Shown: positions 1 through 31,015, counted from the first letter of the stretch. The stretch is DNA of 50,433 nt from an uncultured Lachnoanaerobaculum sp. (GCA_916720285.1 CAKAQP010000001.1:1-50433), one strand, 5' to 3'. Numbers and translations: made by a program. The notes: generated by a model not told the origin, from the sequence alone.

Positions 1-1
1 C

Positions 2-1144
2 CTATTTCAGCACTTCTCTGGCTATAACAACCTTGTGAATCTCTGAAGTACCTTCATATATTTCTGTTATCTTTGCATCTCTATACATTCTCTCCAAAGG
101 ATAGTCTCTCATATATCCATATCCTCCATGTATCTGTAATGCCTTATCTGTTACTTCAACCGCTACCTTTGATGCATTAAACTTTGCAATAGCAGCCTCT
201 TTTGTATATGGCATACCGCTCACTTTAAGGCTTGCAGCTCTATATGTCATCCATCTTGCACACTCAACCTTTGTAGCCATCTCCGCAAGATACCATTGCA
301 AGCCCTGCAATGAGGAAATAGGTCTGCCAAATTGTACTCTTTCTTTTGTGTACTTTATGCTTTCATCCAATGCACCTGCCGCAATACCCACAGCCTGCGC
401 CGCAATTCCTATTCTTGCACCGTCAAGTGCAGTCATTGCAATTTTAAATCCCTTACCGAGCGGTCCTATAAGATTATCCTTTGGAACTCTGCAATTATCA
501 AATATAAGCTCCGCTGTCTCTGATCCGTGAAGTCCCATCTTATCTTCTATCTTACCTATTGAAAATCCGGGTGTACCACGCTCTACCAATATACAGCTTA
601 GTCCCTTAGTCTTTAACTCCGGTGAGGTAAGAGCAAATACCAATACATATTTTGCCAATCCTCCACCTGTTATAAAACATTTTGTACCGTTTAGTACATA
701 TTCCTGTGTTTTCTCATCAAATATAGCTGTTGTTCTTGCACTTCCTGCATCAGATCCGGCATTCGGCTCGGTGAGGGCAAATGCCCCCAACTCGCCTCCT
801 GCACATACTACCGGCAAATATTTTTGCTTTTGTTCTTCAGTACCGAATTTTTCGATTACCGAAGCAAATATAGTATGTATTGAAAGTGTAGCTGCAGTAG
901 AACCGCAGTATTTAGCTATTTCTTCCACAGCAATTATCTTTTCGATATCGCTGCCTCCGCTACCGCCGTATTTTTCCTCAGTTCCTATACCGGTTAATCC
1001 CATCTTGGTCATCTCCAAAAATAAATCTTTTGGAAATTTTCCGCTTCTATCTATTTCTTCAGCTCTTGGTTTTACCACATTTTCACTGAAGTCGGCTACA
1101 GTTTTTTTAAGCATCAACTGTGCTTTGGAAAAATTAAAATCCAT
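2..1144 (-). CDS. Acyl-CoA dehydrogenase (Bcd/AcrC-like; candidate acryloyl-CoA reductase catalytic subunit)
   Basis: 380 aa with ACAD motifs ALTEPNAGSDA, NGTKCFITGG, ERVQFGRPI, QIHGGYGY and IYEGTSEI. GGAGGA RBS. Lies directly downstream of the lyase/CoA-transferase genes. Confidence 0.92.
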   Translation of the reverse strand: MDFNFSKAQLMLKKTVADFSENVVKPRAEEIDRSGKFPKDLFLEMTKMGLTGIGTEEKYGGSGGSDIEKIIAVEEIAKYCGSTAATLSIHTIFASVIEKFGTEEQKQKYLPVVCAGGELGAFALTEPNAGSDAGSARTTAIFDEKTQEYVLNGTKCFITGGGLAKYVLVFALTSPELKTKGLSCILVERGTPGFSIGKIEDKMGLHGSETAELIFDNCRVPKDNLIGPLGKGFKIAMTALDGARIGIAAQAVGIAAGALDESIKYTKERVQFGRPISSLQGLQWYLAEMATKVECARWMTYRAASLKVSGMPYTKEAAIAKFNASKVAVEVTDKALQIHGGYGYMRDYPLERMYRDAKITEIYEGTSEIHKVVIAREVLK

Positions 1145-1157
1145 TTCTTTTCCTCCA

Positions 1158-2726
1158 CTAGATTACGCCTTCTTCTTTTAATTGCTTCAATGTTTCATCA
1201 TCAAAGCCGTAAACCTCTTTATTATGTTGTCCAAGAAGCGGTGCCGGTGCATCTACACTTCCCGGTGTTTCGCTCAGCTTGATAGGACAACCCTGTATAT
1301 ACATATCACCTATTGTAGGATGCTCAACATGTACCATCATCTCTCTTGCCTGGAAATGTGGATGTTCTATTGCTTCCTTCATATCAAGTATCTGTCCGCA
1401 AGGTATTCCGACCTCCTCAAACAGTCTTTCTACTTCTGCCTTGCCTCTTTGTTTTACCCAATCTACAATTATCTCATGTAAACCGTCATTGTAATTTTTA
1501 ATTCTGAGATCATTGGTAGCAAACTTCTCATTTGTAACAAGATCAGGTCTGCCTATTACATCACAGAACAGCTTAAATAGTTTATCTGTACCTACTCCAA
1601 GTGCGATATATCCGTCCTTTGCCTCATATACATTGAATGGTGAAACTGTAGCATCAATATTTCCCTGTCTCTGAGGTATAATTCCTTTAAGAGTTGTATA
1701 GATTATTGCATTTTCAAGCAATGTAAATATAGTATCTGCCATAGCCACATCTACCTGCTGACCTTCACCGGTTACATTTCTTCTGTAAAGCGCCATAAGT
1801 ACACCGACACAAAGATAAATTCCTGTAACATTATCAGCTACCGATACTCCGCATTTTACAGGAGGAGCATCTGTATAGCCTGTAAGATTTATCATACCGC
1901 CAAGAGCCTGTGCAACGATATCATAGCACGGCCTGTTTGAGAAAGGTCCATACTGTCCGAAACCGCTACCTGAAGCATAAATTATTCTTGGATTTATCTT
2001 CTTTAATGTCTCATAGTCAACTTGTAATTTCTTTGTTACTCCGACTCTGAAGTTTTCTACCACTACATCAGCCTCTCTGACAAGGTCATAGAAAATCTCT
2101 CTTCCTTTTTCAGTCTTTAAGTTAAGAGTAACTCCTTTTTTATTTCTGTTTATAAATGCATAAAATCCGCTTTCACCGCTATTATCATCCATTGGAGGCC
2201 AATACCTTGACTGATCACCTGTAAGAGGCTCTATCTTTATAACCTCAGCACCGTTATCTGCTAAAAGAGCGGTACAGAAAGGACCGTTATATGCATGTGT
2301 AAGGTCAAGAACCTTAAGTCCCTCAAGCGCTTTTGCTTTCTTTTTCTCCTTCTTTGCAGGAATAATGTATTCAAAAATACATACTGTTGAAAGAGGAGGA
2401 TCTTCCAAAACATCTATGGAGCTCTCAAACTCGGGCTTCTCAGGGATAACCGCAATCTTAAATGAACGCACTTCAATGATTGCTCTACCGTTTTCCTCAC
2501 CTAAAAGCCTTGCCTTATACTCCATATAATCTCCGGCAAAACATGGTACAAACAGTCTTACTTTTCTTACCTTTGCACATCTGCTTTGATTTCCATAAAC
2601 CTTGGTCATCAATCTGTTTGCGGTATCTTCCATCAAAGTAATAGACCTTGCACCGTTTACAACACCTCCACCGTAGAAAACATCTCTATCTGACATTCTA
2701 TATCTTAATGTAACTTCAGTACTCAT
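1158..2726 (-). CDS. Fusion of an N-terminal Kal/Acl-type hotdog domain (aminoacyl-CoA ammonia-lyase-like) and a family III (CaiB/BaiF) CoA-transferase
   Basis: aa 1-125 contain RMSDRDVFYGGGVVNGAR...PCFAGDYME. A Lys-rich linker KKEKKKAK follows, then LEGLKVLDLTHAYNGPFC, NRNKK, DVVVENFR and a probable catalytic Asp in VSVADNVTG. Confidence 0.85.
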   Translation of the reverse strand: MSTEVTLRYRMSDRDVFYGGGVVNGARSITLMEDTANRLMTKVYGNQSRCAKVRKVRLFVPCFAGDYMEYKARLLGEENGRAIIEVRSFKIAVIPEKPEFESSIDVLEDPPLSTVCIFEYIIPAKKEKKKAKALEGLKVLDLTHAYNGPFCTALLADNGAEVIKIEPLTGDQSRYWPPMDDNSGESGFYAFINRNKKGVTLNLKTEKGREIFYDLVREADVVVENFRVGVTKKLQVDYETLKKINPRIIYASGSGFGQYGPFSNRPCYDIVAQALGGMINLTGYTDAPPVKCGVSVADNVTGIYLCVGVLMALYRRNVTGEGQQVDVAMADTIFTLLENAIIYTTLKGIIPQRQGNIDATVSPFNVYEAKDGYIALGVGTDKLFKLFCDVIGRPDLVTNEKFATNDLRIKNYNDGLHEIIVDWVKQRGKAEVERLFEEVGIPCGQILDMKEAIEHPHFQAREMMVHVEHPTIGDMYIQGCPIKLSETPGSVDAPAPLLGQHNKEVYGFDDETLKQLKEEGVI

Positions 2727-2737
2727 ATTACCCCCTA

Positions 2738-3193
2738 TTAAAGTTCAAGTTCTCTCCAAGGGTCAATAACTTCACCACTTGGCTGATTTCCACGTTGTAA
2801 TTCTTTCTTTACTACAAGTACTACAGTACCTTCAGTAATCAATTTTGGAGGATCGAAATAATACATATCTCCCGGATTAGCATCTTTGATACCCATTCTA
2901 TATGCAGGAGTTGCAACTTTATAAGTGCTTATTCTACATGTTCTTGATGTATTTCCCACCTTTAGCATCTCTGCTCTGAAATTAAGTTGATCACCTACAT
3001 ATGCATCTTCATACAGCTCAACATCCGTATATCCAAGGCACAAAGATTCATCACCGTCATTTAATATCATCAACTCTGTTTCAACATCACCGATAAAGTC
3101 AAACTGTCTCCCAAACGGTATTTTTCCGTCAACATTATTTGCATCGGCAGTTGTCATATTATAATTTAATTCCGCTACTTTTCTAACACTCAT
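2738..3193 (-). CDS. Beta-alanyl-CoA/3-aminobutyryl-CoA ammonia-lyase-like hotdog protein
   Basis: 151 aa with GDVETELM..NDGDESL, VGD, VGNTSR and C-terminal LQRG, which resemble Acl/Kal. GAGGTG RBS. Confidence 0.8.
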   Translation of the reverse strand: MSVRKVAELNYNMTTADANNVDGKIPFGRQFDFIGDVETELMILNDGDESLCLGYTDVELYEDAYVGDQLNFRAEMLKVGNTSRTCRISTYKVATPAYRMGIKDANPGDMYYFDPPKLITEGTVVLVVKKELQRGNQPSGEVIDPWRELEL

Positions 3194-3216
3194 TTTACAC
3201 CTCTGTTCTACTGTAA

Positions 3217-3245
3217 TGTTGGGGCCAAAATATTTGACCCCAACA
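3217..3245 (-). other. Intergenic RNA hairpin without U-tract
   Basis: Minus strand TGTTGGGGTCAAA-TAT-TTTGGCCCCAACA, 13-bp stem with one G-U pair. Confidence 0.6.
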
Positions 3246-3256
3246 CTTAAATCATA

Positions 3257-4513
3257 TTATTGAGCATCACACTTTAATACTGCATTCAAAAGTACGCTGG
3301 CACCCTTTGTACACTGCTCAACCGGAGTAAACTCCTCTTCACAATGAGAATGTCCGTCCTTTGAAGGTACAAATATCATTGTAGTAGGCATCATATAGCT
3401 TACAAACTGTGCATCATGTCCCGCACCTGAGTTGATTCTTTGATTTGAATATCCGAGCTCATTTACAGCCTCTGTTACATAACCTATAAGCTTCTCATCA
3501 TAGTAAACTGTATCTCTTGACCATGCTCTCTCATAACCTGTAGTACAGCCTACTATTTCCTTCGGTATATTCTTTATTACTTCAACAACCTGCTCTATAA
3601 CCTTAGGATCCTCATGTCTTGCATCTATTGAGAACTCTACAAAATCAGGAATAACTGTATGTACATTTGGATGACATACTATCTCACCTGTTGTATATAC
3701 GAGTGCCTTGTCAAGCTTATCAAGCTCATCATGAAGATACTGTAAAAGCTTTGCAGCTGCATATAATGCATCTTTTCTATATGGCATAGGAGTTGTTCCT
3801 GCATGATCTGACTGTCCGAACGCTTTGATTCTGTAGTTTATCATTCCAAGAACACAGGTAACTATTCCGATATCATTCTTTGCAGCCTCAAGGATAGGTC
3901 CCTGCTCAATATGAAGCTCGAACATTGCCTTATAATCCTTAGGATTTAATCTGTTTGCTACATCTCCCTTATAGCCGCTTGCTTCAAGGGCCTCTTTAAA
4001 TGTCTTATTCTTATCAAGAACTGAAGTTGATGCAAGCATATCCTCATGCTTAAACTTCTTTCCAATCTCTTCCGGTAAGTAATCATTACAGATAACTCCT
4101 GATGACATCATAGCTGGTGGATATAAAGATCCTTCCTCATTTGTCCAAATCATTGCTACGAGATTGTGCTTATGAGGTATCTTTTGTTCTGCAACAGACT
4201 CCAAAACTTCCATAGCTCCCATTACACCTAAAATACCGTCATAGTTTCCACCATTTCTTACCGAATCCGAATGTGAAGCCATAACAATTGCCGGAAGTGT
4301 AGGATCACTACCCTCTAATGTTGCATACATATTTGCCATATCATCGGTCTTAACCTTTGCACCGATAGCTTCCATTCTTTTCTTGAATTCAGCTCTTGCC
4401 ATTAGATTTTCTTTTGAAAGAGAATATCTCGTGATACCGCCATGTCCTGCATCACCAAACTGACTCATGGTTTTAATCTTATCTGCCATTCTATCTTCGC
4501 TACACTTATACAT
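3257..4513 (-). CDS. M20-family Zn amidohydrolase; beta-ureidopropionase (N-carbamoyl-beta-alanine amidohydrolase, PydC-like)
   Basis: Motifs SHSDSV, GGNYDG, NEEG, ELHIEQG, HAGTT and SGAGHDA. Follows the dihydropyrimidinase gene. Confidence 0.88.
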   Translation of the reverse strand: MYKCSEDRMADKIKTMSQFGDAGHGGITRYSLSKENLMARAEFKKRMEAIGAKVKTDDMANMYATLEGSDPTLPAIVMASHSDSVRNGGNYDGILGVMGAMEVLESVAEQKIPHKHNLVAMIWTNEEGSLYPPAMMSSGVICNDYLPEEIGKKFKHEDMLASTSVLDKNKTFKEALEASGYKGDVANRLNPKDYKAMFELHIEQGPILEAAKNDIGIVTCVLGMINYRIKAFGQSDHAGTTPMPYRKDALYAAAKLLQYLHDELDKLDKALVYTTGEIVCHPNVHTVIPDFVEFSIDARHEDPKVIEQVVEVIKNIPKEIVGCTTGYERAWSRDTVYYDEKLIGYVTEAVNELGYSNQRINSGAGHDAQFVSYMMPTTMIFVPSKDGHSHCEEEFTPVEQCTKGASVLLNAVLKCDAQ

Positions 4514-4553
4514 ATTTACCCCCTATTAAAACAATATATTCTTCATAAATTCA

Positions 4554-4588
4554 TACTGCCACTACCTATATATAAAGCAGTGACAGTA
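4554..4588 (-). other. Intergenic RNA hairpin
   Basis: Minus strand TACTGTCACTGCT...GGTAGTGGCAGTA; the mismatches are G-U compatible only on the minus strand. Confidence 0.5.
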
Positions 4589-4607
4589 AAACACAATCAT
4601 TGAAACT

Positions 4608-5978
4608 TTAACTTCTAGGTACTCTCTTTACGAATTTACCCATTCCCGGCTTTCCAACGAAATCTCCGTTATCATAGACAAGCTGTCCTCTGAGGAATGT
4701 CTTTACAGGATATCCGTGAAGCTTCTTTCCTTCCCATATAGTATGGTCATAGTCTGAATGCATATTATTTATACTTATGGTAAAATCCTTATCCCTATCA
4801 TAGATTACTATATCCGCATCATTTCCTACTCTGACTCCGCCTTTCTTATCACATCCGAATATTCTTGCAGGATTTGTTGAGCAAAGAGCCACAGCCTGTG
4901 AGAATGTGATCTTACCTGAATTCGCAGCATCAAGCATATATGGATACATATTTTCCACACCTGCACATCCGTTTGGAATCTTTGTAAAGTCATCTATACC
5001 CCAGTCCTTTTCATAGCTCTGGAACGGGCAGTGATCTGTCGCTACTACATCGATCTGATTTTTCTTGATTGCTTCCCAAAGAGCCTGTCTGCTTTCTTCT
5101 CCTTTTATAGGAGGTGAACATACAAAGTTTCTTCCGTCTTCTCTCTTATATACCTCACATGTGAACTCAAGATACTGTGGGCAGGTCTCAACATAAATAG
5201 GAACGCCCTCTTTCTTACCTTCTATACATGCTTCAAGTCCTTCCTTGTCAGCCATATGAACAATGTAGAGCGGTGCATCCAAATGCTTACACCAATGCAG
5301 AGCTCTTCTGTCAGCTTCAGCTTCAACAAACTCCTGACGTGCCAGATAGTGGTACCAAGGGCTCAAATTGCCTTCTTTTTTGAACTTAGCTTCAAAATAA
5401 TCTATCATATCGGAATTCTCTGCATGAACATTTACCAATGCTCCGAGTTCCTTTGCTCTAAGAAGCAAAGTTGCAAACATTCCGTCATCTACCATCATTC
5501 CGGCTTTTTTGTATACCATGAAGCATTTGTAAGATGTAATACCTTCTTTAACCGCTTCTTCCATTTCTTCAAGTATCTGACCATCATTGAAATCGGTAAT
5601 AATACAATGTGATGCCCAGTCTACACAGGCTTCTTTTTCAAGTATGGCTTTTTTTGAATTTACCAAATCCATAATAGTGCCACCTTTTCTCTGAACCGGA
5701 TAATCAAATATTGTAGTAACTCCTCCACAGGCTGCAGCTCTGGTACCTGAAAGGTAACTGTCCGCAGATATGGTTCCTCCAAAAGGCATAGCCAAATGAG
5801 TATGTACATCCAATGCTCCCGGAAGCACAAGCTTACCTGTAGCATCCACTACTTCTTTTGCCTCCATGTCAAGATTCAGACCCATCTCCACGATTTTTCC
5901 GTCTTTTACCCCTACATCACATGGGAACATATCCGTTGCTGTAACTACCACACCACCTTTAATAATTAAATCTAACAT
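4608..5978 (-). CDS. hydA: Dihydropyrimidinase
   Basis: Amidohydrolase motifs PGALDVHTH, AACGGVTT, VHAEN, VHM, ETCPQYL, SPP, ATDHCPF and IPNG. Confidence 0.93.
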   Translation of the reverse strand: MLDLIIKGGVVVTATDMFPCDVGVKDGKIVEMGLNLDMEAKEVVDATGKLVLPGALDVHTHLAMPFGGTISADSYLSGTRAAACGGVTTIFDYPVQRKGGTIMDLVNSKKAILEKEACVDWASHCIITDFNDGQILEEMEEAVKEGITSYKCFMVYKKAGMMVDDGMFATLLLRAKELGALVNVHAENSDMIDYFEAKFKKEGNLSPWYHYLARQEFVEAEADRRALHWCKHLDAPLYIVHMADKEGLEACIEGKKEGVPIYVETCPQYLEFTCEVYKREDGRNFVCSPPIKGEESRQALWEAIKKNQIDVVATDHCPFQSYEKDWGIDDFTKIPNGCAGVENMYPYMLDAANSGKITFSQAVALCSTNPARIFGCDKKGGVRVGNDADIVIYDRDKDFTISINNMHSDYDHTIWEGKKLHGYPVKTFLRGQLVYDNGDFVGKPGMGKFVKRVPRS

Positions 5979-5998
5979 AAATCAACCCCCCTGATATA

Positions 5999-7261
5999 TT
6001 ATAGATAACTATTAGTTTCCTTTAAATTAATTGTATGATTATCATTCTTATCCTTATATACAAGTTTACCCGGTGTTATACACTGCATTACCGGACAAAC
6101 ATTTAAGCAAAGATGACATCCTACACATTTATCTTCATTTATTGTAGGAACTCTGGTTGCATAATCATATTCAATAGCCTGATGTGCCGCATCAAAGCAT
6201 GATACATAGCATCTTCCACATCCGACACATTTTTCTTTATCGATCTGAACCAGGATCTTATATGATCTATCCAAATCATCAGCACCAACAATATTTCCTA
6301 CGGCGGTACCCACTATATCCTGAAGTTTATTTATTCCGTAATCATTCATATAATGTGATATACCGCTTATCATATCTTCAACAATTCTATATCCATATTG
6401 CATTACTGCAGTTGTTACCTGAAGATTTGATGCACCAAGCATCAAAAATTCCAAGCAGTCTCTCCAGGTTTCTATACCACCCATTCCGGTTATCGGAACT
6501 TTGCTTACAATAGGATCATGCATTAAGTCTGATATAAATCTGAGTGCAATAGGTTTTACAGCCGCTCCGGAATATCCTGATATTGCAGATTTTCCGTTTA
6601 CAACAGGCATACCTGTTCTAAGATTTATATCAAGGTTTGTGATAGATTTTACTGTATTTATGGCAGCTATTCCTTTTGCACCGCCTTCTATAGCTGCTCT
6701 TGCAGGAATTTCCATATTTCCAAGGTTTGGTGTCATCTTTGCTATTATCGGTAATTTTGTGCTTGAAGAAGCCACTTCACAATAATGCTTTACCAAATCA
6801 GGATTTTGTCCTACATCAGAGCCCATAGTTGATGATGTCATCTGCGGACATGAGAAATTACATTCAATCATATCCGCTCCGGCCTTTTCAGACTCTTTTG
6901 CAAGTATCGCCCACTCATCATCGCTTGCGCCCATGATACTTGAAACTATCACTTTATTCGGAAAGTCCTTCTTTAATTGCCTGATAAACTCAAAGTTTAC
7001 TTCATTCGGCTTGTCTGAAGTCATCTCCATATTCTTAAATCCGGTCCAAGGTGTTCCCTCTTTTGAAGCTATATCAAATCTTGGTGAACATTCATTTGGT
7101 ATAAAAACGCTTATTGTTTTATAAAAAATACCACCCCAACCGGCTCTCAGTGCCTTAGCACACATTTCATAATTACTGCCTACAGGTGAAGAAGATAGAA
7201 AAAAAGGATTCTCACAATCAACACCTAAAAAATTTATTGATAAATCTTTTTTCAAAGCCAT
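5999..7261 (-). CDS. preA: NAD-dependent dihydropyrimidine dehydrogenase subunit PreA
   Basis: FMN barrel with [19 protein letters not shown] and GYSGAAVKP, plus a C-terminal 2x[4Fe-4S] domain (CVGCGRC...C, CVGCHLC...CP). Confidence 0.95.
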
Positions 7262-7271
7262 ATTAATCTCC

Positions 7272-8480
7272 TCACCTTATATAATCTAATATTTGGTAAG
7301 CTGCTTCTTTTCCTTCATGAACAGACTCTACCACTGTTATACCGACACCATGTAATGCATCACCACCGGTAAATACTCCATTACCCGCAACAAAACTCTT
7401 ATAGTCTTCAACCTGATCCTGTCCTATTGCAAATACGACCATATCTGCCTTAAGTGTCATCTCATTATCATCTTTCATTCCCTTTGCGACAAGAGATGTT
7501 ACATGACCGTTTTCTCCACAAATCTTTTCAGGTGCAAATCCTGTGTAAATAGGGATACCCATCTCTCTTACAAAAGAAATCTCTTCAATATTTGCAGGTG
7601 CTTCTTCTATAGTTCTTCTATAGCAGATACATGCTTTTTCTGCACCCAACTGTCTTGCTGTTGTAGCACAATCCATTGCTACATCACCGCCTCCGATTAC
7701 GATTACTCTTTCCGGAAGTTCCTTTATCTCACCTGTTCTTGCCTTAAACAAAAACTCGATTGCCGACTCAACACCCTTAAGATCGCTACCTTCTATATCT
7801 ACTTTCTTTGAATTCCAAAGACCAACTCCGACAAATACAGCGTCATACTCACTCTTAAGTTTAGGAATGTCTTCAAATTTAATTTCCTTACCGAATTCAA
7901 ACTTTACTCCCAACTCCTTTATAAGTTCTATATCAAAATCCACAACACGGTCAGGAAGTCTTGTAGGTGTGATTCCATATCTCAAAACTCCACCTGCCTT
8001 AGCCTGTTTTTCAAAAATTGTTGTATCCACTCCCGCAAGTGCGAGCTCTCTTGCGCAAGCAAGTGATGCAGGTCCGGCACCTATCAGTGCTACCTTCTTT
8101 CCGATCTTTTCTCCGGCACTGACAAATTTTGCCGACATAGCCTGTTCTTCTTCAACCAGATATCTTTGTATTTTACCGATCTGTATAGGCTTATCTATTC
8201 CACATCTACTACATTCTTCTTCACACATTCTGTCATAAGGACATACCCAGGCACATGAACCACCTAAAGGATTGTTCTCTCTTATTGTCTCTGCGGCACC
8301 CTTTATGTTCTTAAATCTCAGTGAGCGAATGAACTTAGCCGGATCTGTCCCTGCAGGACAGCCCTTAGAACAAGGTGCATCTTCACATAGAAGACACCTG
8401 GATGCTTCCTCCATGGCAAGTCTGTAATTAAAGCCTTCCGACTTCTCCATGCCATATGCCAATTTTAAAATTTTGCTCAT
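7272..8480 (-). CDS. preT: Dihydropyrimidine dehydrogenase subunit PreT (GltD-like flavoprotein)
   Basis: [36 protein letters not shown] and GGGDVAMD. Adjacent to preA. Confidence 0.93.
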
Positions 8481-8506
8481 ATTTAAAACCCCTTACTTTT
8501 TGATTC

Positions 8507-9016
8507 TTAATCCTCTAAAAATTTAGCAATGACCCAGTCTTTTTTATCGGTCTTCTTGAAAAACTTTGCTAATATAAATCTACCCAGATAATCTGATGCG
8601 AGCCCAACGATATTTCCCAGGATAAAGCAAATAATCAACATCTTCCAATTACCACCTGATGCAAAAGCACTAAAGCCGCCCATAAATGTGCAAGTTGCAA
8701 ATCTGGTCAAATCACAATGTGTGATATAGATGATAACTCCACTGAAAATTCCTGTTATCAATCCGTTAAACCATAGACTTCCGTTTACATTTACACATAG
8801 CCAAATGATTGTACATCCGATAAAAATACCTGCGATATTGCTGCATAACGATCTGATAAAACCGTTTTTTCCACATCCTGCTGCATAATAAGATGTACAT
8901 CCTGCAAAGCCTACCCACGTTGCTATCAGCGGACCGGCAAACATAGCCGAAATATATGTCCATAGACCACATACAATTATGTTTGATATGGTATTTGATA
9001 TAATAAATCCCGCCAT
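8507..9016 (-). CDS. DUF1097 (YcdZ-like) membrane protein
   Basis: 169 aa, multi-TM, with WVGFAGCTSYYA, SNIAG and FMGGFSAFA. AAGGAGG RBS. Confidence 0.75.
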   Translation of the reverse strand: MAGFIISNTISNIIVCGLWTYISAMFAGPLIATWVGFAGCTSYYAAGCGKNGFIRSLCSNIAGIFIGCTIIWLCVNVNGSLWFNGLITGIFSGVIIYITHCDLTRFATCTFMGGFSAFASGGNWKMLIICFILGNIVGLASDYLGRFILAKFFKKTDKKDWVIAKFLED

Positions 9017-9101
9017 ACTGTCCTCCTTTCCTACATATTTTATTTTTAAATGTTAAATAATTAACTATCATCTGTTTAAGAACTTATTTTATTCAATTAT
9101 T

Positions 9102-9132
9102 ATCTTAGAATATACAGCTATTGTATATTCAA
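9102..9132 (-). promoter_or_regulatory. MerR-type promoter/operator: TTGAAT-19 bp-TAAGAT with a 9-bp dyad
   Basis: -35 at 9132-9127 and -10 at 9107-9102, 19-bp spacer. Perfect inverted repeat GAATATACA-N5-TGTATATTC at 9108-9130. A MerR gene is adjacent. Confidence 0.7.
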
Positions 9133-9360
9133 GTTAAATTTTTCTGAATTTAACATATATTTTATCTGTATTTCATTTTTATCTCCTATAAATTTATTAC
9201 TCAAAGCATAAATTTACATATAATTAATTCAACAAAAAGCAACTATAAGTCTTTTTTTGTGCATATTGCTATTTTTCGAAAGTAATCTTACACAATATCG
9301 ACTTTGTATTTTTGTTAGTTATGCCTATCACAAGTTTTTCTGAACAGATTTTTACATAGC

Positions 9361-9389
9361 AAAAAAGCCTCCACCAGGTGGAGACTTTT
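9361..9389 (-). terminator. Intrinsic terminator after the MerR gene
   Basis: Minus strand AAAAGTCTCCAC-CTG-GTGGAGGCTTTTTT. Confidence 0.7.
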
Positions 9390-9418
9390 AATCACAATAC
9401 CATTATATTTTATATAAT

Positions 9419-10276
9419 TTAGTTTCTCGGTTTTACAGGTACTATTATCTTTACAATATGCTGCTCGGTATTTGGCAAATCTACCGGTGAAAGCATAAAT
9501 CTTTCTGTTACAGGCCCGTCCACCATCAGCTCATTTTCTTCTATCCATCTTTTCAAAGAAATATATGTATGCACTATATCACTGTAATCACCGACATATA
9601 TAGCATTTGCGGCAAGAAAATTTCCAAATTTCTTCACTTCAGCATCTTTGATATCATTTTCCACCACAATGGAAAACTCTACCTCACAATCCCTGTGAAT
9701 GAATTGTCCAAACATTTCCGTATGATAAGACACTAGAATATCACCCTGGATATTCAGATTTCTTTCTTTTGCAGACTCTATAATATCAATCCATTTTTCA
9801 AGACTGACTTTTTCGTTCTTATAAGACTGCATCATGGTAGTTTTGCCAAATACATATACTTCTCTTTGCTTTTCAAGCTTAAATGAACTTTCTACATTGT
9901 AGTTATTACTGTTTTCAAGTATTCTTTGCGCAGATTCAAGCTTATTCTTTAGTGTAGCGGCTTCTTCATACTTTTTATTCAGCTCAATAATTTCATCTTT
10001 TATGGAGTTTTGTTTTTTTGTCACTATAAGTTCTATCTTTTGAATATCATCTTCTTTTAATATATTCCTAACTTCTTCCAGAGAAAATCCCAAATATCTG
10101 AGTCTCTTTATTATAAAAAGCCGTACCATTTGGTCATGACTGTAATATCTGTAATTATTGTTTTCCTGTCTGATACTTGGAACCATTACATTTATTTTAT
10201 CGTAATATCTTAAAGTCTTTATAGGAATATTACATATTTCCGATACTCTCCCAATAGAATAATATTTGTCTTTCAA
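9419..10276 (-). CDS. MerR-family regulator with C-terminal GyrI-like effector domain (BltR/BmrR type)
   Basis: YYSIGRVSEICNIPIKTLRYYD, NNYRYY, LRYLGFSLEEV, a coiled coil, and C-terminal YVGDY..I..TY..L..WIEEN. TTG start with GGAGGG RBS. Confidence 0.9.
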   Translation of the reverse strand: MKDKYYSIGRVSEICNIPIKTLRYYDKINVMVPSIRQENNNYRYYSHDQMVRLFIIKRLRYLGFSLEEVRNILKEDDIQKIELIVTKKQNSIKDEIIELNKKYEEAATLKNKLESAQRILENSNNYNVESSFKLEKQREVYVFGKTTMMQSYKNEKVSLEKWIDIIESAKERNLNIQGDILVSYHTEMFGQFIHRDCEVEFSIVVENDIKDAEVKKFGNFLAANAIYVGDYSDIVHTYISLKRWIEENELMVDGPVTERFMLSPVDLPNTEQHIVKIIVPVKPRN

Positions 10277-10312
10277 GTCTACCCTCCAAAATGAAACAAA
10301 GATGTCTCTATT

Positions 10313-11266
10313 TTATTTCTCTTCCAGCTCTTTATATGTAGCCCTAAGCTCCTCACAGGATTTTGCAAACTTTGCTTTTTCCTCATCTGTAAGAGAGAAT
10401 TCAAGTATTCTTTGGATTCCTGCACTGTTTATTACACATGGAACTCCAACAAATACATCGTTTTGTCCGTATTCACCACGAAGATTTGCAGATACTGTAA
10501 GAACCGAGTTTTCATCACCCAGTATAGCCTTTGTAATTCTTGTAAGGCTCATTCCTATACCGTAATAAGTAGCTCTCTTAGCTTCTATTATCTTATATGC
10601 AGCTGTTCTTACATCTTCTTCAATGCGGTCAAGCTCTTCTATATTCAGTTTGCCCTTTGATTCGGCTATAAGATCTGTTATAGGCTTTGTAGAAAGCATT
10701 GCATTTGACCACGGAACAAACTCGGAATCACCATGTTCACCTATAACATAGGCATGCACGCTTCTTGGATCTGCCTGTATATATGATCCAAGCAGATATC
10801 TAAGTCTTGCAGAGTCAAGTGCCGTACCTGAACCGATTACTCTTCTCGGATTAAACCCTGAAAGCTTATATGTAATCTCAGTCATTATATCTACAGGGTT
10901 TGTAGCCACAAGGAATATTCCGTTAAATCCGCTCTCTGTAATAGGGTCTATAATGGATTTAAACACTTCCATATTTCTCTTTAAAAGATCTCTTCTGCTC
11001 TCTCCCGGTGCCTGAGCCACACCTGCACATATTACGACAATGTCTGCATTTGTACAGTCACTGTAATCTCCTGCCCAGATTCTCATATGTGATCCTGAAA
11101 AAGCCAAACCATGGTTTAAATCCATAGCTTCACCCTCGGCTCTTAATTTATTCACATCTATAAGAACAAGCTCGTCCACAACATTTTGGTTTAACATAGC
11201 ATATGCGTAGCTCATGCCGACCATACCGCATCCTACAAGAACAACTTTTCTCTTATCATTTTTCAT
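10313..11266 (-). CDS. ldh: L-lactate dehydrogenase
   Basis: GCGMVG, GEAMDLNHG, ESRRDL, ATNPVD, GSGTALDSAR, GEHGDSE and ATYYGIG. Start moved to the ATG at 11266 behind AAAGGAG. Confidence 0.93.
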   Translation of the reverse strand: MKNDKRKVVLVGCGMVGMSYAYAMLNQNVVDELVLIDVNKLRAEGEAMDLNHGLAFSGSHMRIWAGDYSDCTNADIVVICAGVAQAPGESRRDLLKRNMEVFKSIIDPITESGFNGIFLVATNPVDIMTEITYKLSGFNPRRVIGSGTALDSARLRYLLGSYIQADPRSVHAYVIGEHGDSEFVPWSNAMLSTKPITDLIAESKGKLNIEELDRIEEDVRTAAYKIIEAKRATYYGIGMSLTRITKAILGDENSVLTVSANLRGEYGQNDVFVGVPCVINSAGIQRILEFSLTDEEKAKFAKSCEELRATYKELEEK

Positions 11267-12011
11267 ATATTGCTCCTTTCGCAATCCTCTGTCTGACTAT
11301 CTCATAAGCCAATACACCACAGGCAACAGATGCATTGAGTGAATCAATATCACCGTTCATAGGTATAGAAGCTATGAAATCGCAATTTTTCTTAACGCTT
11401 TCACTTACTCCGTCTCCCTCATTACCTATTACAAGTCCGATACTTCCCGTCAAATCAATATTATACATCCTTTCGCCGCCCATGTCTGCACAAACAAACC
11501 ACATTCCTGCATCTTTCAGCTCCTGCATGGTTTTATTTATATTGGTGACTTTGGCAACAGGCGTATAATTAATTGCTCCTGCAGAAGCTCTTGCCACTAC
11601 AGCGGTAAGTCCTACGGCTCTGTGTTTAGGTATAATCACTCCATGGGCACCGCTAAGATTGGCAGTCCTTATAATCGCACCGAGATTATGCGGATCCTCT
11701 ATGCCGTCTAAGATAAATACAAAAGGCGGCTCATTTTTTTGTATTGCCTTTTCTAATATATCCTCTACGCTTGCGTACTCATATGCCGCAACTATTGCAA
11801 TAACTCCCTGATGCTTTCCGGTCTCGCTCATTGCGTCAAGTCTGTCCTTACCGACAAAATTTACATATGTACCGTGCTTTTTGGCTTCTCTTAATATTGT
11901 AGAAACAGTGTAGTCCTTCAAGCCGTCCTGCAAATATAATTTATCAACGGTTTTACCGCTTCTGAAAGCCTCTATTACCACATTTCTGCCTTCTATGGCA
12001 TTTTCATTCAT
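11256..12011 (-). CDS. rlmB: 23S rRNA (Gm2251) 2'-O-methyltransferase
   Basis: SPOUT motifs HQGV, DPHNLGAIIRTA, IGNEG and SLNASVA; cysS-mrnC context. Confidence 0.93.
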   Translation of the reverse strand: MNENAIEGRNVVIEAFRSGKTVDKLYLQDGLKDYTVSTILREAKKHGTYVNFVGKDRLDAMSETGKHQGVIAIVAAYEYASVEDILEKAIQKNEPPFVFILDGIEDPHNLGAIIRTANLSGAHGVIIPKHRAVGLTAVVARASAGAINYTPVAKVTNINKTMQELKDAGMWFVCADMGGERMYNIDLTGSIGLVIGNEGDGVSESVKKNCDFIASIPMNGDIDSLNASVACGVLAYEIVRQRIAKGAIYEK

Positions 12012-17402: not shown

Positions 17403-18254
17403 TTATCTGGTCGGCCTTGACAGATAAAATCTTCTGTCATCTTCTTTCTTATTTAAAGTGGTAACTGTATCCTCCAAGATTGCACTCTTAAAAACAGGAT
17501 CGATATTTATGTACTCACTGTATATAAGGTCAAGTACAAGTAACATCGGGAACTGTGGAGAAATAAGATTTCCGTTCTCCAAATACTCAAGTGAAGCAAC
17601 CAATACAACTTCATCACAGAATTCATGCAAATGAGGGTTATCCGCCGCCGTGAAAAATACTGTCTTCTTACCCCTGTCATGTGCATGTTTTAAAAGGAAA
17701 ATAATATCCTCAGTCTTACCGCTTATACTGAATGCTACCACTGTATCTCCGTCTTTTAAAAATACGGACTGCATTCTTATTCTGTCGGAATCCGTAAGAG
17801 AGTCTATATCAAGTCCCACTCTCACAAAACGGCTCTCCATTTCACTTGCCGCATATCCTGAACTTCCCTTACCTACAGCTATGACCTTCTTTGAATTTAC
17901 AAGCATCTTCACTATTCTTTGTACCTGATCGTTGTCAAGCAGTGAATATGCCTTATTCAAAAGATCCTGATATGTATTAAATACATTTTGTGTAGTGCTG
18001 TTACCGTTCGGCTTTTTTACTCTTGCACTGTCCAGGTAGGCAAATATAAATTCTCTGAAACCTACAAAGCCGCACTTTTTTGCAAATCTTGAAATAGATG
18101 CCTGTGATACATAGAGCTGTTCAGCCACATTCTGGATATTTATATCCATATTTGCATCACATTGTAAAAAATAATCCGCTATCTTTTTTTCAGTATTTGT
18201 AAAAAGCGTATATTTTGATTCTATTATCGGAATCACTGATTTTTCGTATATCAT
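17403..18254 (-). CDS. RpiR/MurR-family regulator (NanR-like)
   Basis: EKKIADY, VSQASISRFAKKCGFVGFREF and SIS-domain motifs GKGSS and FSISGKT; nan context. Confidence 0.88.
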   Translation of the reverse strand: MIYEKSVIPIIESKYTLFTNTEKKIADYFLQCDANMDINIQNVAEQLYVSQASISRFAKKCGFVGFREFIFAYLDSARVKKPNGNSTTQNVFNTYQDLLNKAYSLLDNDQVQRIVKMLVNSKKVIAVGKGSSGYAASEMESRFVRVGLDIDSLTDSDRIRMQSVFLKDGDTVVAFSISGKTEDIIFLLKHAHDRGKKTVFFTAADNPHLHEFCDEVVLVASLEYLENGNLISPQFPMLLVLDLIYSEYINIDPVFKSAILEDTVTTLNKKEDDRRFYLSRPTR

Positions 18255-18276
18255 TTTCCCCTCTTTCCGCTACTTA

Positions 18277-19161
18277 CTAACCCTTTACAGCACCCAGAGT
18301 AATACCTTTTGTAAAGTATTTTTGAAGTGCAATAAACACTATCAGTATAGGTGCTGCGGCCAGTGTAGCTCCCGCCATTATAAGTCCGAAATCTGTCGAG
18401 TTTTCTGCTTGTAGTTTAGCAATTCCCAGAGAAATTGTCAAATTAGAAGTAGAACTTAGCATAATAAGTTGCATGAAATAATCATTCCAGCTGTTGATAA
18501 ATGTGAATATTGCCAAAGCACCCACTCCCGGCTTTACCATCTGGAAAACTATATCTGTAAATGTTTTAAATTCACTTGCACCGTCAATCCTTGCAGCTTC
18601 CAGCATTTCCGTAGGTATACCCTCAGAAAACTGCTTCATAAGAAATACACCGAAAGGCCATCCTACGGTTGGAAGTATAACCGCCCATATAGTGTTATAA
18701 AGCTTAAGTGCCGACATTTCTCTGATAAGAGGTATAAGAATAACCTGCTTAGGCAATGCCATAGCACATACTATAAGTGTAAAAAGTATTATCCTTCCAT
18801 GAAATCTTTTTTTTGCAAGTGCATATCCCGCCATAGATGCTGTAAGACACGTAAGTACCATGGCCATAACCGCCATAAATACCGTATTTATCATCCATCT
18901 TACTGCTGCCGGCGCCATAGGTCCCTTTATAAATCCCAATTCAAATATAGGTGCCGTCTGTCTTGAGAACAGCTTTTTAAAGTTATCAAGTACGAGCTCT
19001 TTAGGTATCCAATCAGGTACCGGTGAATTTATTGAAACAGGTGTTTTAAATGCACCTGTAACTATCCAATACAGTGGAAAAACAAAGCAAAACGCCAGTG
19101 CTATCAGTATAATTATCGATACAACAGTATACAGTTTTTTTAGTGTATTTGAAGTTTTCAT
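18277..19161 (-). CDS. Carbohydrate ABC permease (SatC-like, sialic acid)
   Basis: EAARIDGA EAA loop, LPKQVILIPL and C-terminal GAVKG. Confidence 0.88.
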   Translation of the reverse strand: MKTSNTLKKLYTVVSIIILIALAFCFVFPLYWIVTGAFKTPVSINSPVPDWIPKELVLDNFKKLFSRQTAPIFELGFIKGPMAPAAVRWMINTVFMAVMAMVLTCLTASMAGYALAKKRFHGRIILFTLIVCAMALPKQVILIPLIREMSALKLYNTIWAVILPTVGWPFGVFLMKQFSEGIPTEMLEAARIDGASEFKTFTDIVFQMVKPGVGALAIFTFINSWNDYFMQLIMLSSTSNLTISLGIAKLQAENSTDFGLIMAGATLAAAPILIVFIALQKYFTKGITLGAVKG

Positions 19162-19162
19162 A

Positions 19163-20071
19163 TTATCTCTCCTTTGCCACTCTAAACTGAATTGCAGACA
19201 ATACCGCTATAAATATTGCGAGTACAACACCCATTGCATTTCCGTATCCGTATCTGAACATCTTAAATGCCATATAATAGATATAATACATTACAGTATC
19301 TGTTGAATGATTCGGTCCGCCTGATGTTAAAAGCTGTATAAGAGCGAAACACTGAAAACTGTTAATAGTTGTTATAACAAGAATATATAATGTTGTAGGC
19401 ATAATCTGAGGCCATTTAATCTTCCAGAATAATTGCAATTCATTTGCTCCGTCCACCTGTGCGGCCTCAACCAATGAATTGTCCACATTTCCAAGTGCGG
19501 ATACATATAATACTATAGGCTGACCTACAGATGTGGTAAGCAAGATAAGTATGATACATGCCAGAGCAAATCTCTCGTCTCCAAGCCAGTTGATATTTGT
19601 TTTTAAAATACCTGTACCTTTTCCGATATAGTTGAAGATACCGTAATAATTATTGTACATCCACTTCCAAACCACTGTAACGGCAACCGAACCGGTAACT
19701 ACAGGGAGATAAAAGATACATCTGAAAACTGAAAGCACTTTATCATTTAGATTGTATATTACAGATGAAATCCACAATGAAAATATACAAACCACAGGAA
19801 CTGAAACGATAACAATAACAAAGGTATTTTTAAGTGCCTTTAGAAAAATTCCGTCTTGAAACAGTTCTATATAATTTCCAAATCCGATAAATACATCCTT
19901 AGCATCCTTGCCCATTGTAGAATCAAAGAAGCTGGTATATATACATATAATCATCGGTATTATTACAAAACCGATAAAGAATACAAGGCTTGGTAATAAA
20001 AACATATAAGCTGAAGCGGTTTCTCTTCTTACCAATTCCTTTGACCTGGTTGTATAAACACCCTTTGCCAT
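19163..20071 (-). CDS. Carbohydrate ABC permease (SatB-like, sialic acid)
   Basis: LPVVTGSVAVTVVWKW, LLTTSVGQPI, EAAQVDGA and TINSFQCFALIQLLTSGGP, recalled as typical of streptococcal sialic-acid permeases. Confidence 0.88.
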   Translation of the reverse strand: MAKGVYTTRSKELVRRETASAYMFLLPSLVFFIGFVIIPMIICIYTSFFDSTMGKDAKDVFIGFGNYIELFQDGIFLKALKNTFVIVIVSVPVVCIFSLWISSVIYNLNDKVLSVFRCIFYLPVVTGSVAVTVVWKWMYNNYYGIFNYIGKGTGILKTNINWLGDERFALACIILILLTTSVGQPIVLYVSALGNVDNSLVEAAQVDGANELQLFWKIKWPQIMPTTLYILVITTINSFQCFALIQLLTSGGPNHSTDTVMYYIYYMAFKMFRYGYGNAMGVVLAIFIAVLSAIQFRVAKER

Positions 20072-20084
20072 GTTTCCCCTTTCT

Positions 20085-20121
20085 AAAAAATGTTGCTAAA
20101 GAAAATCCTTAGCAACATTTT
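20085..20121 (-). terminator. Hairpin/leaky terminator between the SBP and permease genes
   Basis: Minus strand AAAATGTTGCTAAG...TTTAGCAACATTTTTT. Confidence 0.6.
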
Positions 20122-20176
20122 ATAACATGTTAGATCACCTAACTATTTTTTAAAGATCAGTATTTTACTACTGTTA

Positions 20177-21538
20177 TTATTGAGCTGCTGCAGCATTTGC
20201 GTTAGTTGTAAATGTTGCGACCTCTGTTGCCACATCGCCGCCTGCACCTATTCTCTGAAGCATGTTCCACCACTCTGTACGAGCTGTAGTCCATCCCTTT
20301 GTTACCTGATAGTAGTCACCCATTGAAGGCATGAACTTCTCTTCGAAAAGCTTCATTGCATCAGCTGTCTCTGTTCCCTCATATACACCTGTTACAGAAG
20401 GTCTTACAGGGAAGAATCCTGAAGCCTTAACGCTTTCCTTAACCTGTGCCTCATCATTACATACGAAGTCGATAAATGTCTTTGCAGCTTCAATCTTACC
20501 TGCATCTCCGTTGTCAAAGATTCCATATCCCCAGATACCGCCGCAAAGCTCTGTAACGCCGTCGTCACTTGGGAATAACATAGGTATAATCTCATCACCT
20601 GCATTTGTCTTTCCTGCAGGGCCGTTATCTGAATTTGTCTGCTGTGATGCATTCCAGCAAAGTGACATTGCCAAAGTACCGTTTCTGAACAATGTAATCT
20701 CGTCACCACCTGCTATAGAAGGATCAAAGTTTAAACCTGCCTGATCAACAATTGCCTGTAAAGCTTTCTTGTTCTCTTCAGAATCAACTGTATACTTTGT
20801 ATGATCCTTATCTGTAAATGTACCTGAGTAAAGATTGTTTACCAAAGCTCTTGTTCCCTGATCTCCACCCTGTGAAACACAGTATATAGCACCGACATTT
20901 TGCTGTCCTGAATCATATACCGCCTGAACAGCCTTAAGGAAGTTGTCTGTTGTCCATGTATGTGTATCTAAATCAAGATACTTTAATGCATCAGCCTTCT
21001 CAAACATTGTCTTATTTATAGCCATACAATGTGCAACCATAAATGCAGGATACTCATAAAACTCACCTGTAGGACTCTTACATGCAGCTTTTACAGGATC
21101 ATAGATATCTGATGCCGCATCCTTTTCAAACATATCCTTCAAGTCTACCATAAGTCCCTTTGCACCCCAGTTGGCTACAAGTCTTTCAGGTCCCTCAAGT
21201 ACGATATCAGGTGCCTGCTTTCCTTCTATAGCAGTATTGATCTGATCGTCACCGTTTTGATAGTCAAGATACTCTACAGTTACCTTAATATTCGGATACT
21301 TCTCATTGAACTTTTTGATAATTCCGTCAACTGTTGCAGAGTCTCCCCATTTACCTACAGGATATGTCCAGAGTGATATCTCAGCCGCATCTTTTGCCGC
21401 CTCACTTGCTCCCTCCTGCTTTGTATCCGCCTTTGAATCAGCCGCTGCACTTGTTTGATCTGCCGCTTTTCCTCCTCCACATGCTGCGAGCATACCCGCC
21501 GCTGTAAGTGTCAAACCTGTTAACAATAATTTCTTCAT
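20177..21538 (-). CDS. Sugar ABC substrate-binding lipoprotein (probably sialic acid/ManNAc)
   Basis: Lipobox LAAC, Ala-rich linker, then ISLWTYP...FNEKYPNIKV...APDIV...GGDQGTR. Confidence 0.85.
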   Translation of the reverse strand: MKKLLLTGLTLTAAGMLAACGGGKAADQTSAAADSKADTKQEGASEAAKDAAEISLWTYPVGKWGDSATVDGIIKKFNEKYPNIKVTVEYLDYQNGDDQINTAIEGKQAPDIVLEGPERLVANWGAKGLMVDLKDMFEKDAASDIYDPVKAACKSPTGEFYEYPAFMVAHCMAINKTMFEKADALKYLDLDTHTWTTDNFLKAVQAVYDSGQQNVGAIYCVSQGGDQGTRALVNNLYSGTFTDKDHTKYTVDSEENKKALQAIVDQAGLNFDPSIAGGDEITLFRNGTLAMSLCWNASQQTNSDNGPAGKTNAGDEIIPMLFPSDDGVTELCGGIWGYGIFDNGDAGKIEAAKTFIDFVCNDEAQVKESVKASGFFPVRPSVTGVYEGTETADAMKLFEEKFMPSMGDYYQVTKGWTTARTEWWNMLQRIGAGGDVATEVATFTTNANAAAAQ

Positions 21539-21637
21539 ATTTCCTCCTTAATGAGTCTTACACTCAAGATTATTCACAAATAATGCGTTACAACCGGTTT
21601 TATAAACTTATCTCTCAATGTTTAAAAACCTTGACCT

Positions 21638-22333: not shown

Positions 22334-22347
22334 TTTTACTACCTCCA

Positions 22348-22385
22348 TCTGAAAGTATCTTACCATTTCTGAAAATAAATTTCAA
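22348..22385. promoter_or_regulatory. Candidate NanR (RpiR) operator boxes
   Basis: Tandem TCTGAAAGTATCTTACCA and TCTGAAAATAAATTTCAA directly upstream of nanE; another half-site ACTTTCAGA at about 22501-22509. Confidence 0.45.
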
Positions 22386-24001: not shown

Positions 24002-24129
24002 ATATAGTCTCCTTTTTTTTATTATACTCCGGTGATACTCGGCCCGGAGTTTTTAGTTTTCTTGTAAGTCAAATTTAATTAAAGATATTTAAGTCTATAT
24101 ATCACTGCCATTCAATATATTTTAAAAAT

Positions 24130-25863: not shown

Positions 25864-25892
25864 ACTCCCTCCAAAAGCCAAGCTCCTATCGA

Positions 25893-27264: not shown

Positions 27265-27273
27265 TTCTTCCTC

Positions 27274-29565: not shown

Positions 29566-29670
29566 ATTATTTCCTCTCTAATTTAATATTTTATATTATT
29601 TAATTTATATACCTTTACCATCTTGTAGCAATTAGCTTCCTCGTCTTTGTAAGTTGATAAAAATATAAAA

Positions 29671-30939: not shown

Positions 30940-30953
30940 ATTCTCCCCTAATA

Positions 30954-30995: not shown

Positions 30996-31015
30996 CTCCA
31001 CCCACAATTTCTGTG

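Follow-up and report, generated by a model that had tools for sequence, protein, structure and literature searches.

What becomes of the β-amino acid left by reductive pyrimidine breakdown when the genes for that breakdown are followed, on the same strand, by genes resembling those of coenzyme A (CoA)-dependent β-alanine fermentation? The question is raised by a 50,433-nucleotide (nt) stretch of DNA from an uncultured Lachnoanaerobaculum sp. (CAKAQP010000001.1:1-50433; hereafter the window, meaning the whole stretch analyzed), in which eight open reading frames (ORFs) occupy positions 2 to 9016 of the minus strand. In the reductive pathway, the base and NAD(P)H give the dihydro base, then the ureido acid, and then the β-amino acid with NH3 and CO2 (PMC7332683); fermentation of β-alanine begins with CoA transfer and continues with elimination of ammonia (summarised in PMC4619459 and PMC10266731). 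An earlier note on this DNA, made from the sequence alone, proposed that the two are joined here into one route from uracil to propionate. We assign a probability of roughly 0.8 to the reading that the operon encodes a route from pyrimidine through β-amino acid, CoA ester, and enoyl-CoA to propionate and/or isobutyrate, with 2 NH3 released and 2 NADH taken up. Support comes from continuation of the operon into etfBA, from a downstream reductase that passes the AcrC model, and from a shared MerR-type promoter; the substrates and products are those we infer.

The layout of eight tightly spaced, co-oriented genes in the earlier note was borne out in coordinates, strand, and families by ORF checking, Pfam, and curated models. 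Intergenic gaps, from upstream to downstream, measure 26, 10, 20, 94, 63, 11, and 13 bp, and the GC content of the operon is indistinct from that of the rest of the window. Window position 1 is a contig end. The terminal 55 bases (1..55, minus strand) overlap exactly with another contig of the same genome, C268, on which etfB lies 8 bp past the stop codon of the last ORF, an acyl-CoA dehydrogenase (ACAD), and is followed by etfA and a MATE transporter gene. The etfB and etfA genes that had been predicted beyond position 1 are thus present. The C268 genes are 97 to 98% identical to those that follow the ACAD in a related locus, L001, and the ACAD-etfB-etfA-MATE order is the one found in loci L001-L006.

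Four of the upper five genes are those of pyrimidine reduction and ring opening. PreA, the FMN/Fe-S subunit of dihydropyrimidine dehydrogenase (5999..7261), scored 586 bits with NF006183 (cut-off, 335). It adjoins a gene for a PreT-type FAD/NAD(P)H subunit (7272..8480) with the domains PF14691 (Fer4_20) and PF07992 (Pyr_redox_2), and this combination identifies the dihydropyrimidine dehydrogenase; among the models matched, none was specific to PreT, so the call relies on these domains and on adjacency to preA. The HydA/PydB dihydropyrimidinase (4608..5978) reached 458 bits with TIGR02033 (cut-off, 393) and failed the allantoinase model TIGR03178. PydC, a predicted β-ureidopropionase of the M20 family (3257..4513), passed TIGR01879, the model for hydantoinase/carbamoylase-family amidases, with 360 bits (cut-off, 204), and assignment as an allantoate deiminase was rejected because the AllC model gave 244 bits against a cut-off of 598. 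Its PDB matches included the N-carbamoyl-β-alanine amidohydrolase 8c46 (E, 2e-64), ranked behind two unassigned amidases, and N-carbamoyl-β-alanine and allantoate amidohydrolases score similarly among its PDB relatives. By family and context, the substrate is presumably an N-carbamoyl-β-amino acid. The first gene of the operon encodes a DUF1097 (YcdZ-like) membrane protein (8507..9016; Pfam PF06496), for which transporter or channel is a guess; an ESM atlas look-up added no function. A DUF1097-type ycdZ also lies upstream of preT in Anaerostipes hadrus (PMC11036815).

At the opposite end, the ACAD (2..1144) is an AcrC-type acryloyl-CoA reductase subunit: it scored 702 bits with NF042972 (cut-off, 640) and is 64% identical to UniRef100_G3KIM8. 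The other two ACADs of the genome fell below the AcrC cut-off, at 457 bits and, for a partial sequence, 413 bits. AcrABC uses NADH to reduce acrylyl-CoA (PMC4832176). RnfC is present in the genome.

Between the two ends lie two small hotdog-fold proteins, which we call HD1 and HD2. HD1 (2738..3193) has 151 amino acids (aa); HD2 (2352..2726) forms residues 1 to 125 of a 522-aa fusion protein (1158..2726) that continues into a CoA-transferase. Pfam returned no match for HD1 or for the HD2 region. By sequence, the nearest solved relative of both is Acl2 (PDB 4mtu), a β-alanyl-CoA ammonia-lyase, and 4mtu was also the top fold match for both models (TM, 0.79 and 0.83), with YciA-type acyl-CoA thioesterases as the next structural neighbors. 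The nearest named relatives of HD1, at 96 to 100% identity, are in Lachnoanaerobaculum genomes. In a quick tree that carries long-branch warnings, HD1 was sister to canonical Acl (SH-aLRT, 95), Kal stood apart (96), and HD2 formed its own clade (100).

Residues were compared in Acl numbering across 135 distinct sequences grouped by best reference (3 Acl, 20 Kal, 47 HD2, and 54 HD1; one sequence was dropped for a stop codon). Residues that are invariant or nearly so in Acl and Kal are divided between the two proteins, and neither chain has them all. HD2 keeps the RM..D.(H to F)Y..VNG half, with R11, M12, Y19, V24, N25, and G26 at 100%, and has lost the TE, DGDESL, and QR elements: E39 (Arg in 94%), D47 (Asn in 98%), E48, L50, Y54, R83, Q129, and R130. 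HD1 retains the GDxxTE, DGDESL, and QR half, with G34, D35, T38, E39, G46, D47, E48, L50, Y54, R83, Q129, and R130 at 100%, and lacks the HY..VNG half (R11, H18, Y19, N25 [Pro in 93%], and G26). His18 is found in neither protein, being Phe in 91% of HD2 sequences, and a new Glu37 appears in 98% of HD1 sequences; the canonical Acl, Kal, and second-pair sequences displayed all keep the His and lack Glu37 (a distant Acl-like sequence in L205 was not scored). The description of an Acl-like hotdog in the earlier note therefore stands as to family, by fold and nearest relative, and falls as to a stand-alone Acl, since HD1 carries half of the invariant residues and HD2 the other half.

The two genes also travel together. 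HD2 accompanied HD1 in all 53 loci retrieved by the HD1 search and in 14 of 15 loci from an order-level sample (a contig end truncates the fifteenth), and natural HD1-HD2 fusions of 281 to 297 aa occur in L202, L173, P0317, P0321, and P0322. Prediction of the HD1-HD2 complex gave a score of 0.79, compared with 0.11 for the best of three controls, with at least 98% contact agreement between runs and a partner pLDDT of at least 85. Of 78 solved complexes, 51 attain the mark used for this score, as do 2 of 108 mismatches, although passing it may reflect memory and show likeness only, because the Acl homo-oligomer has already been solved. The modelled interface is the standard hotdog dimer and includes HD2 residues 17 and 24 to 27 and HD1 residues 31 to 35. 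In hotdog proteins both subunits contribute residues to the active sites, and double-hotdog enzymes as a rule retain one site and accept bulkier substrates (PMC2698920). Together, these models and alignments suggest that HD1 and HD2 very probably form a heteromer, that this heteromer likely serves as a β-aminoacyl-CoA ammonia-lyase in which one active site is changed by replacement of His18 with Phe and gain of Glu37, and that it could plausibly take 3-aminoisobutyryl-CoA derived from thymine. Databases misname proteins of this type as Acl or Kal.

Other arrangements of the family were seen as well. A second, less diverged tandem hotdog pair, with His18 and without Glu37, is present in L088 (17811-18690), L091 (9606-10513), L147, L150, and L157 and may be an earlier stage of the split or a β-alanine-specific version; in genome G357, both types of pair flank one pyrimidine cluster. 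Recent duplications are also apparent: next to the pair, L039 (8954-9861) has a canonical Acl gene in two identical copies, L021, L022, and L026 have a second HD1, and L200 and L201 carry the whole pair twice.

The remainder of the fusion protein is a class III CoA-transferase domain (1158..2336; PF02515 at residues 134 to 502). Its Asp, which we take to be the catalytic one, aligns with that of YfdE and SUGCT. HD2 and the transferase are fused in eight loci (L001-L006, L012, and L015). The window transferase is 66% identical to a pyrimidine-linked paralog and 49% identical to a 397-aa class III transferase encoded beside acl2, which from its position is presumably Act. Since it is nearer the pyrimidine-linked paralog, the lower module (the hotdog pair, the transferase, and the ACAD with Etf) appears to be a sister of the Act/Acl system and distinct from it.

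The relationship to that system is most visible in a locus (L197; G627:C1:2241000-2260900) whose ACAD is letter for letter UniRef100_G3KIM8, named as the acryloyl-CoA reductase of Anaerotignum propionicum. Its gene order is acrC-acrB-acrA-CoA-transferase-HD1-HD2, then merR, then a divergent hydA-NCS1 permease-pydC-preT-preA set. All three Acr models were passed, acrC is co-oriented with the transferase, HD1, and HD2 genes plus a small conserved ORF, and HD2, HD1, the transferase, and AcrA carry consecutive accessions next to the ACAD. Elsewhere the same genome encodes a protein identical to the PDB Acl2 (4mtu), and it is this gene that the 397-aa transferase gene adjoins. Three identical acrABC copies are described for A. 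propionicum (PMC4832176), whereas our search of this genome found a single identical acrC, along with two ACADs that are 55% and 45% identical. The promoter type described below precedes acrC here and acl2 in L199, which suggests that the acryloyl-CoA reductase genes of A. propionicum lie in a pyrimidine/β-amino-acid regulon.

The earlier note had named co-occurrence of preTA-hydA-pydC with hotdog, CoA-transferase, and ACAD genes across genomes as a check on its proposal, and such co-occurrence was found. In 22 of the 53 loci, preA, hydA, and pydC all lie within 10 kb of the hotdog gene, and 17 of those also have the CoA-transferase and an ACAD; clustering on this scale indicates that the linkage is not due to chance. 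At least one pyrimidine gene is present in 33 of 53 loci, and pydC (at least 55% identity) in 42 of 53 HD1 genomes, 25 from the locus itself and 17 of 28 by whole-genome search. Gene order varies among loci, and upper and lower genes are interleaved in L037, L041, and L047. Among 399 genomes sampled evenly from the class, 28 have preA; HD1 turned up in 5, namely this genome and four others, each of which is among the preA carriers. In the order sample, pydC was present in 14 of 14 other HD1-type genomes versus 13 of 32 genomes of family f3 that have only other Acl-type matches. No PydD-like β-alanine aminotransferase was detected in the 53 loci with two class III queries, the sole match being bioA. 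In three loci (L127, L128, and L194), pyrimidine genes adjoin a canonical His-type Acl, and the route may also exist with a homomeric lyase. The pair was also observed in assemblies labelled Desulfovibrio and Bacteroidaceae (L027 and L044), through either gene transfer or a binning error.

Several putative regulatory features were identified upstream of and within the operon. Upstream lies a gene (9419..10276, minus strand) for a MerR-family predicted activator with a GyrI-like ligand domain (Pfam MerR_1 + GyrI-like; BmrR/EcmrR architecture), whose nearest solved relatives are BmrR and EcmrR; homologs occur in 34 of 53 hotdog loci, and the protein is a probable regulator of the operon. Its transcript appears to end at an intrinsic-terminator-like hairpin with a U tract (9357..9389, minus strand; arms 9363-9375 and 9377-9389; -17.9 kcal/mol; z, -3.63; stability matched by 0 of 200 shuffles). 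MerR promoters have a 19-bp spacer with dyad symmetry. A putative promoter/operator of this layout (9102..9132, minus strand) has its -35 element at 9132-9127 and its -10 element at 9107-9102, separated by 19 bp containing a perfect 9-bp dyad (9130-9122/9116-9108), and the layout is conserved across four aligned promoters; spacer, dyad, and cognate merR gene together make it a predicted MerR promoter. A fixed version of the pattern yielded 30 sites in the 53 loci versus 1 to 7 in five shuffles. A matrix seeded by 13 of the fixed-pattern sites and scanned over 68 loci yielded 40 sites, compared with 0 to 3 in shuffles, and 38 of the 40 immediately precede pathway genes; among non-seed sites, 25 of 27 lie upstream of a pathway gene, three being near-copies of a seed. 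Where the pyd genes and the lower module are separate (L009, L017, and L200), a site heads both. A generic sigma-70/terminator scan was uninformative (29 promoter-like sites versus 35 expected; 5 terminators versus 4.5), and its 16- to 18-bp spacer makes it blind to the MerR site. An Rfam scan of window positions 1 to 12000 gave 0 matches.

The window operon has only the one regulon site, at 9102..9132, and two intergenic hairpins on its strand. That between hydA and pydC (4556..4588) is weak (z, -2.25; 5 of 200 shuffles as stable). A strong 14-bp hairpin without a U tract lies in the gap between pydC and HD1 (3216..3246; -22.6 kcal/mol; z, -4.45; 0 of 200 shuffles) and is kept in L001-L006. 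It resembles an element for mRNA stability or processing more closely than it does an intrinsic terminator, and because it has no U tract, read-through into HD1 is likely.

Taken together, these features suggest the following route. A single MerR-activated operon would drive all steps. By chemistry established at the family level, PreTA would reduce uracil or thymine with NAD(P)H, and HydA and PydC would open the ring to give β-alanine or 3-aminoisobutyrate, NH3, and CO2. The class III transferase would then shift CoA from propionyl- or isobutyryl-CoA onto the β-amino acid without ATP; the ATP-free recycling of CoA in the earlier note keeps its logic on this account and stays a proposal. The HD1/HD2 heterodimer, with one intact site made of the HD2 loop and the HD1 helix, would eliminate NH3 to give acryloyl- or methacrylyl-CoA, and the tether of HD2 to the transferase could limit escape of the toxic enoyl-CoA. 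Finally, AcrC and EtfBA would reduce the enoyl-CoA to the acyl-CoA, a step suggested by strong homology for acryloyl-CoA and extrapolated to methacrylyl-CoA. The running of these steps in series, the recycling of CoA from the product, and the thymine branch are likewise parts of the proposal. Per base, the net balance would be 2 NADH used and 2 NH3 and CO2 released, making the route an electron sink and a nitrogen source.

Several observations weigh against this route. In 91% of HD2 sequences, Phe replaces His18, which is invariant in the aligned Acl and Kal, and the reaction could therefore be a different one. No curated substrate model was matched by the transferase, which is only 49% identical to the one beside acl2. 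The EtfA and EtfB encoded on C268 fail the AcrA and AcrB models (400 versus 600 bits and 292 versus 475 bits), 10 of 15 cluster-locus ACADs tested fall below the AcrC cut-off (408 to 627 bits), and no ACAD is nearby in 14 of 53 loci. The strong hairpin lies at the pydC-HD1 junction. In 11 of 53 HD1 genomes, many of them small or fragmented assemblies, no pydC match was detected, which means that the lower module need not be tied to pyrimidines. The counts are also not independent: 11 of the 14 HD1 genomes in the order sample come from a single genus, and Lachnoanaerobaculum-like loci make up 6 of the 53.

Within the proposed route, the choice of substrate turns on which other lyases accompany the pair. 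Searching 50 HD1 genomes (all but L002-L004) with an Acl query at E 1e-25, we found a second, non-lysine His-type lyase in 14, only Kal in 7, and nothing else of the family in 29; in L039, L092, L088, and L122, the His-type lyase shares the cluster with the pair. Co-existence with a His-type lyase points to a different substrate for the pair, the obvious one being 3-aminoisobutyryl-CoA from thymine, and the pair being the sole Acl-type lyase in most genomes argues that it also handles β-alanyl-CoA. We therefore consider it slightly better than an even bet that HD1/HD2 would be a heterodimeric 3-aminoisobutyryl-CoA ammonia-lyase, acting on that ester alone or besides β-alanyl-CoA, within a complete pathway that ferments thymine to isobutyrate and uracil to propionate in anaerobes of the mouth, the gut, and elsewhere, and that the A. 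propionicum acrABC operon would share its regulon; conversion of both bases to end products would have even odds. It is unlikely that the pair is specialized for 3-aminoisobutyryl-CoA, with thymine going to isobutyrate and uracil halting at β-alanine unless a His-type Acl is present. The altered site (Phe18, with Glu37 in 98% of HD1), the His-type lyases beside the pair in those four loci and in 14 of 50 genomes, and the genome that holds both the pair and an Acl2 identical to 4mtu would all fit such specialization, but in 29 of the 50 genomes no other Acl-family gene was found and in 7 only Kal, the reductase is of the AcrC type, and the same promoter type precedes acl2. The minimal version in the earlier note, in which only the β-alanine branch operates and 3-aminoisobutyrate is excreted, is also unlikely, though slightly less so: it agrees with the AcrC-type reductase, with the grouping of HD1 with canonical Acl, and with the finding of no other Acl-type lyase in most genomes, but it leaves unexplained why the pair is retained beside a working-type Acl and why active-site residues have changed.

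Some other chemistry or context is, overall, unlikely. One improbable form is that HD1/HD2 acts as an enoyl-CoA hydratase or thioesterase that clears toxic acryloyl- or methacrylyl-CoA. The YciA-type thioesterases that come next after Acl in structure, the loss of His18, and the presence of the pair in the acr operon of a genome already holding Acl could be read in this way, yet the residues that the pair retains are those invariant in Acl and Kal, 29 of 50 genomes have no other lyase found to make the enoyl-CoA, and the loci contain no aminotransferase or 3-hydroxyacid route genes. We regard as quite improbable that the lower genes are mere neighbors, serving imported β-amino acids from their own internal promoter after the pydC hairpin (3216-3246). 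The 11 of 53 genomes without a pydC match, whose loci often carry BrnQ-like or BCCT transporters, would suit that idea; however, the spacer is 63 bp, with no U tract and no second regulon site in the operon, the interleaving of upper and lower genes in three loci runs counter to it, and separate transcription would still leave the enzymes sharing one β-alanine pool. Very improbable is a function of the hotdogs as Kal-type 3-aminobutyryl-CoA lyases working with a butyryl-CoA dehydrogenase in lysine fermentation. Automatic database names and weak matches to the Kal model NF052388 (62.5 bits for HD1 and 50.1 for HD2) point that way, but these scores fall far short of the 160-bit cut-off, Kal sequences group in a clade of their own, and elsewhere in the genome are a lysine operon that includes kal (C5) and a Bcd-like ACAD-etf locus (C277).

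The proposed pyrimidine fermentation shares parts with several known systems. The three ring-opening steps are common to the operon and the reductive Pyd pathway (PydA or PreTA, PydB/HydA, and PydC), whose known extensions are PydD/PydE or PydD/MSDH (PMC7332683); in the 53 loci no β-alanine aminotransferase accompanies them, and nitrogen would instead leave by CoA-dependent elimination while carbon is reduced to a fatty acid. A. hadrus has the same ycdZ-preT-preA-hydA order (PMC11036815) and is without a ureidopropionase. The β-alanine fermentation of Anaerotignum (Clostridium) propionicum (Act, Acl1/Acl2, and AcrABC) likewise uses a class III transferase, an Acl-fold lyase, and an AcrC-type reductase with Etf, and there the same promoter type as in the window precedes acl2 and acrC. 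The window system differs in having the other transferase paralog (49% versus 66%), Etf proteins that are not AcrA/AcrB equivalogs, and a junction to pyrimidine reduction. Acl2 is reportedly a homohexamer; it has both half-sites in one chain, which in the window are split over two divergent genes with Phe18 and Glu37. Kal has the same fold and performs β-elimination on a CoA ester but belongs to a separate clade, and here the hotdogs score below its cut-off, no lysine genes are nearby, and a true kal lies elsewhere.

Two further systems bear on the divided active site. In the double-hotdog acyl-CoA thioesterase 7, two divergent hotdog domains form one site, as proposed here, the working site of mouse Acot7 comprising Asn24 and Asp213 (PMC2698920); its chemistry is that of a thioesterase, whereas the window has two Acl-family genes, which are sometimes fused elsewhere. 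The β-valine pathway of Pseudomonas SBV1 (BvaA and BvaB1/B2) also deaminates a methyl-branched β-amino acid in a CoA-dependent manner but relies on a ligase that needs ATP and on lyases of the enoyl-CoA hydratase fold that each work alone, is aerobic, and has no pyrimidine link (PMC4619459). BvaB1/B2 was rejected as a precedent for a two-gene lyase because of the different fold and the activity of each protein alone. A literature search that covered full texts and few subscription papers returned no description of pyrimidine reduction joined to CoA-dependent deamination, which supplementary cluster tables on Pyd could show, and none of an aminoisobutyryl-CoA lyase with thymine or of a two-subunit Acl. 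What would be new is the split lyase, the remainder being known chemistry in a new combination.

If correct, the route would give pyrimidine breakdown an anaerobic ending in which the bases serve as Stickland-like electron acceptors, and it would be a source of ammonia, propionate, and non-valine isobutyrate in host-associated anaerobes. With an Acl divided between two complementary subunits, the lyase would have a novel architecture and would be a candidate for catalyzing the formation of acryloyl- or methacrylyl-CoA from β-aminoacyl-CoA, of interest for acrylate and methacrylate biosynthesis. PreTA and HydA of gut bacteria act on 5-fluorouracil (PMC11036815), so bacteria that also carry PydC and the lower module may take its conversion beyond the point so far reported.

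The genome around the operon is that of a probable amino acid fermenter. Besides the Bcd-like locus, it holds a reductive operon at G000:C115:1470-7404, which by sequence likeness we take to be Had-like (2-hydroxyacyl-CoA dehydratase), and the kal-bearing locus on C5, presumably a full lysine fermentation operon; the two together point to a Stickland-type fermenter, and with these loci present the pyrimidine module is not needed for their functions. An L-lactate dehydrogenase gene (10313-11284, minus strand) lies 36 bp upstream of merR, an arrangement confined to the six Lachnoanaerobaculum-like loci. A probable sialic acid or N-acetylmannosamine utilization cluster with NanE, a sugar ABC transporter, and an RpiR regulator follows at 17403-22366 (minus strand). 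Thirteen kilobases from the operon, a purine catabolism and selenium-cofactor cluster (22616-38155, minus strand) encodes two NCS2 permeases, adenine deaminase, three xanthine-dehydrogenase-type subunits, and an amidohydrolase, together with MobA-like, YqeC, cysteine desulfurase-type, TusA-domain, and AIRS-domain (SelD-like) proteins. Nucleobase catabolism genes are thus concentrated on the contig that carries the pyrimidine operon.

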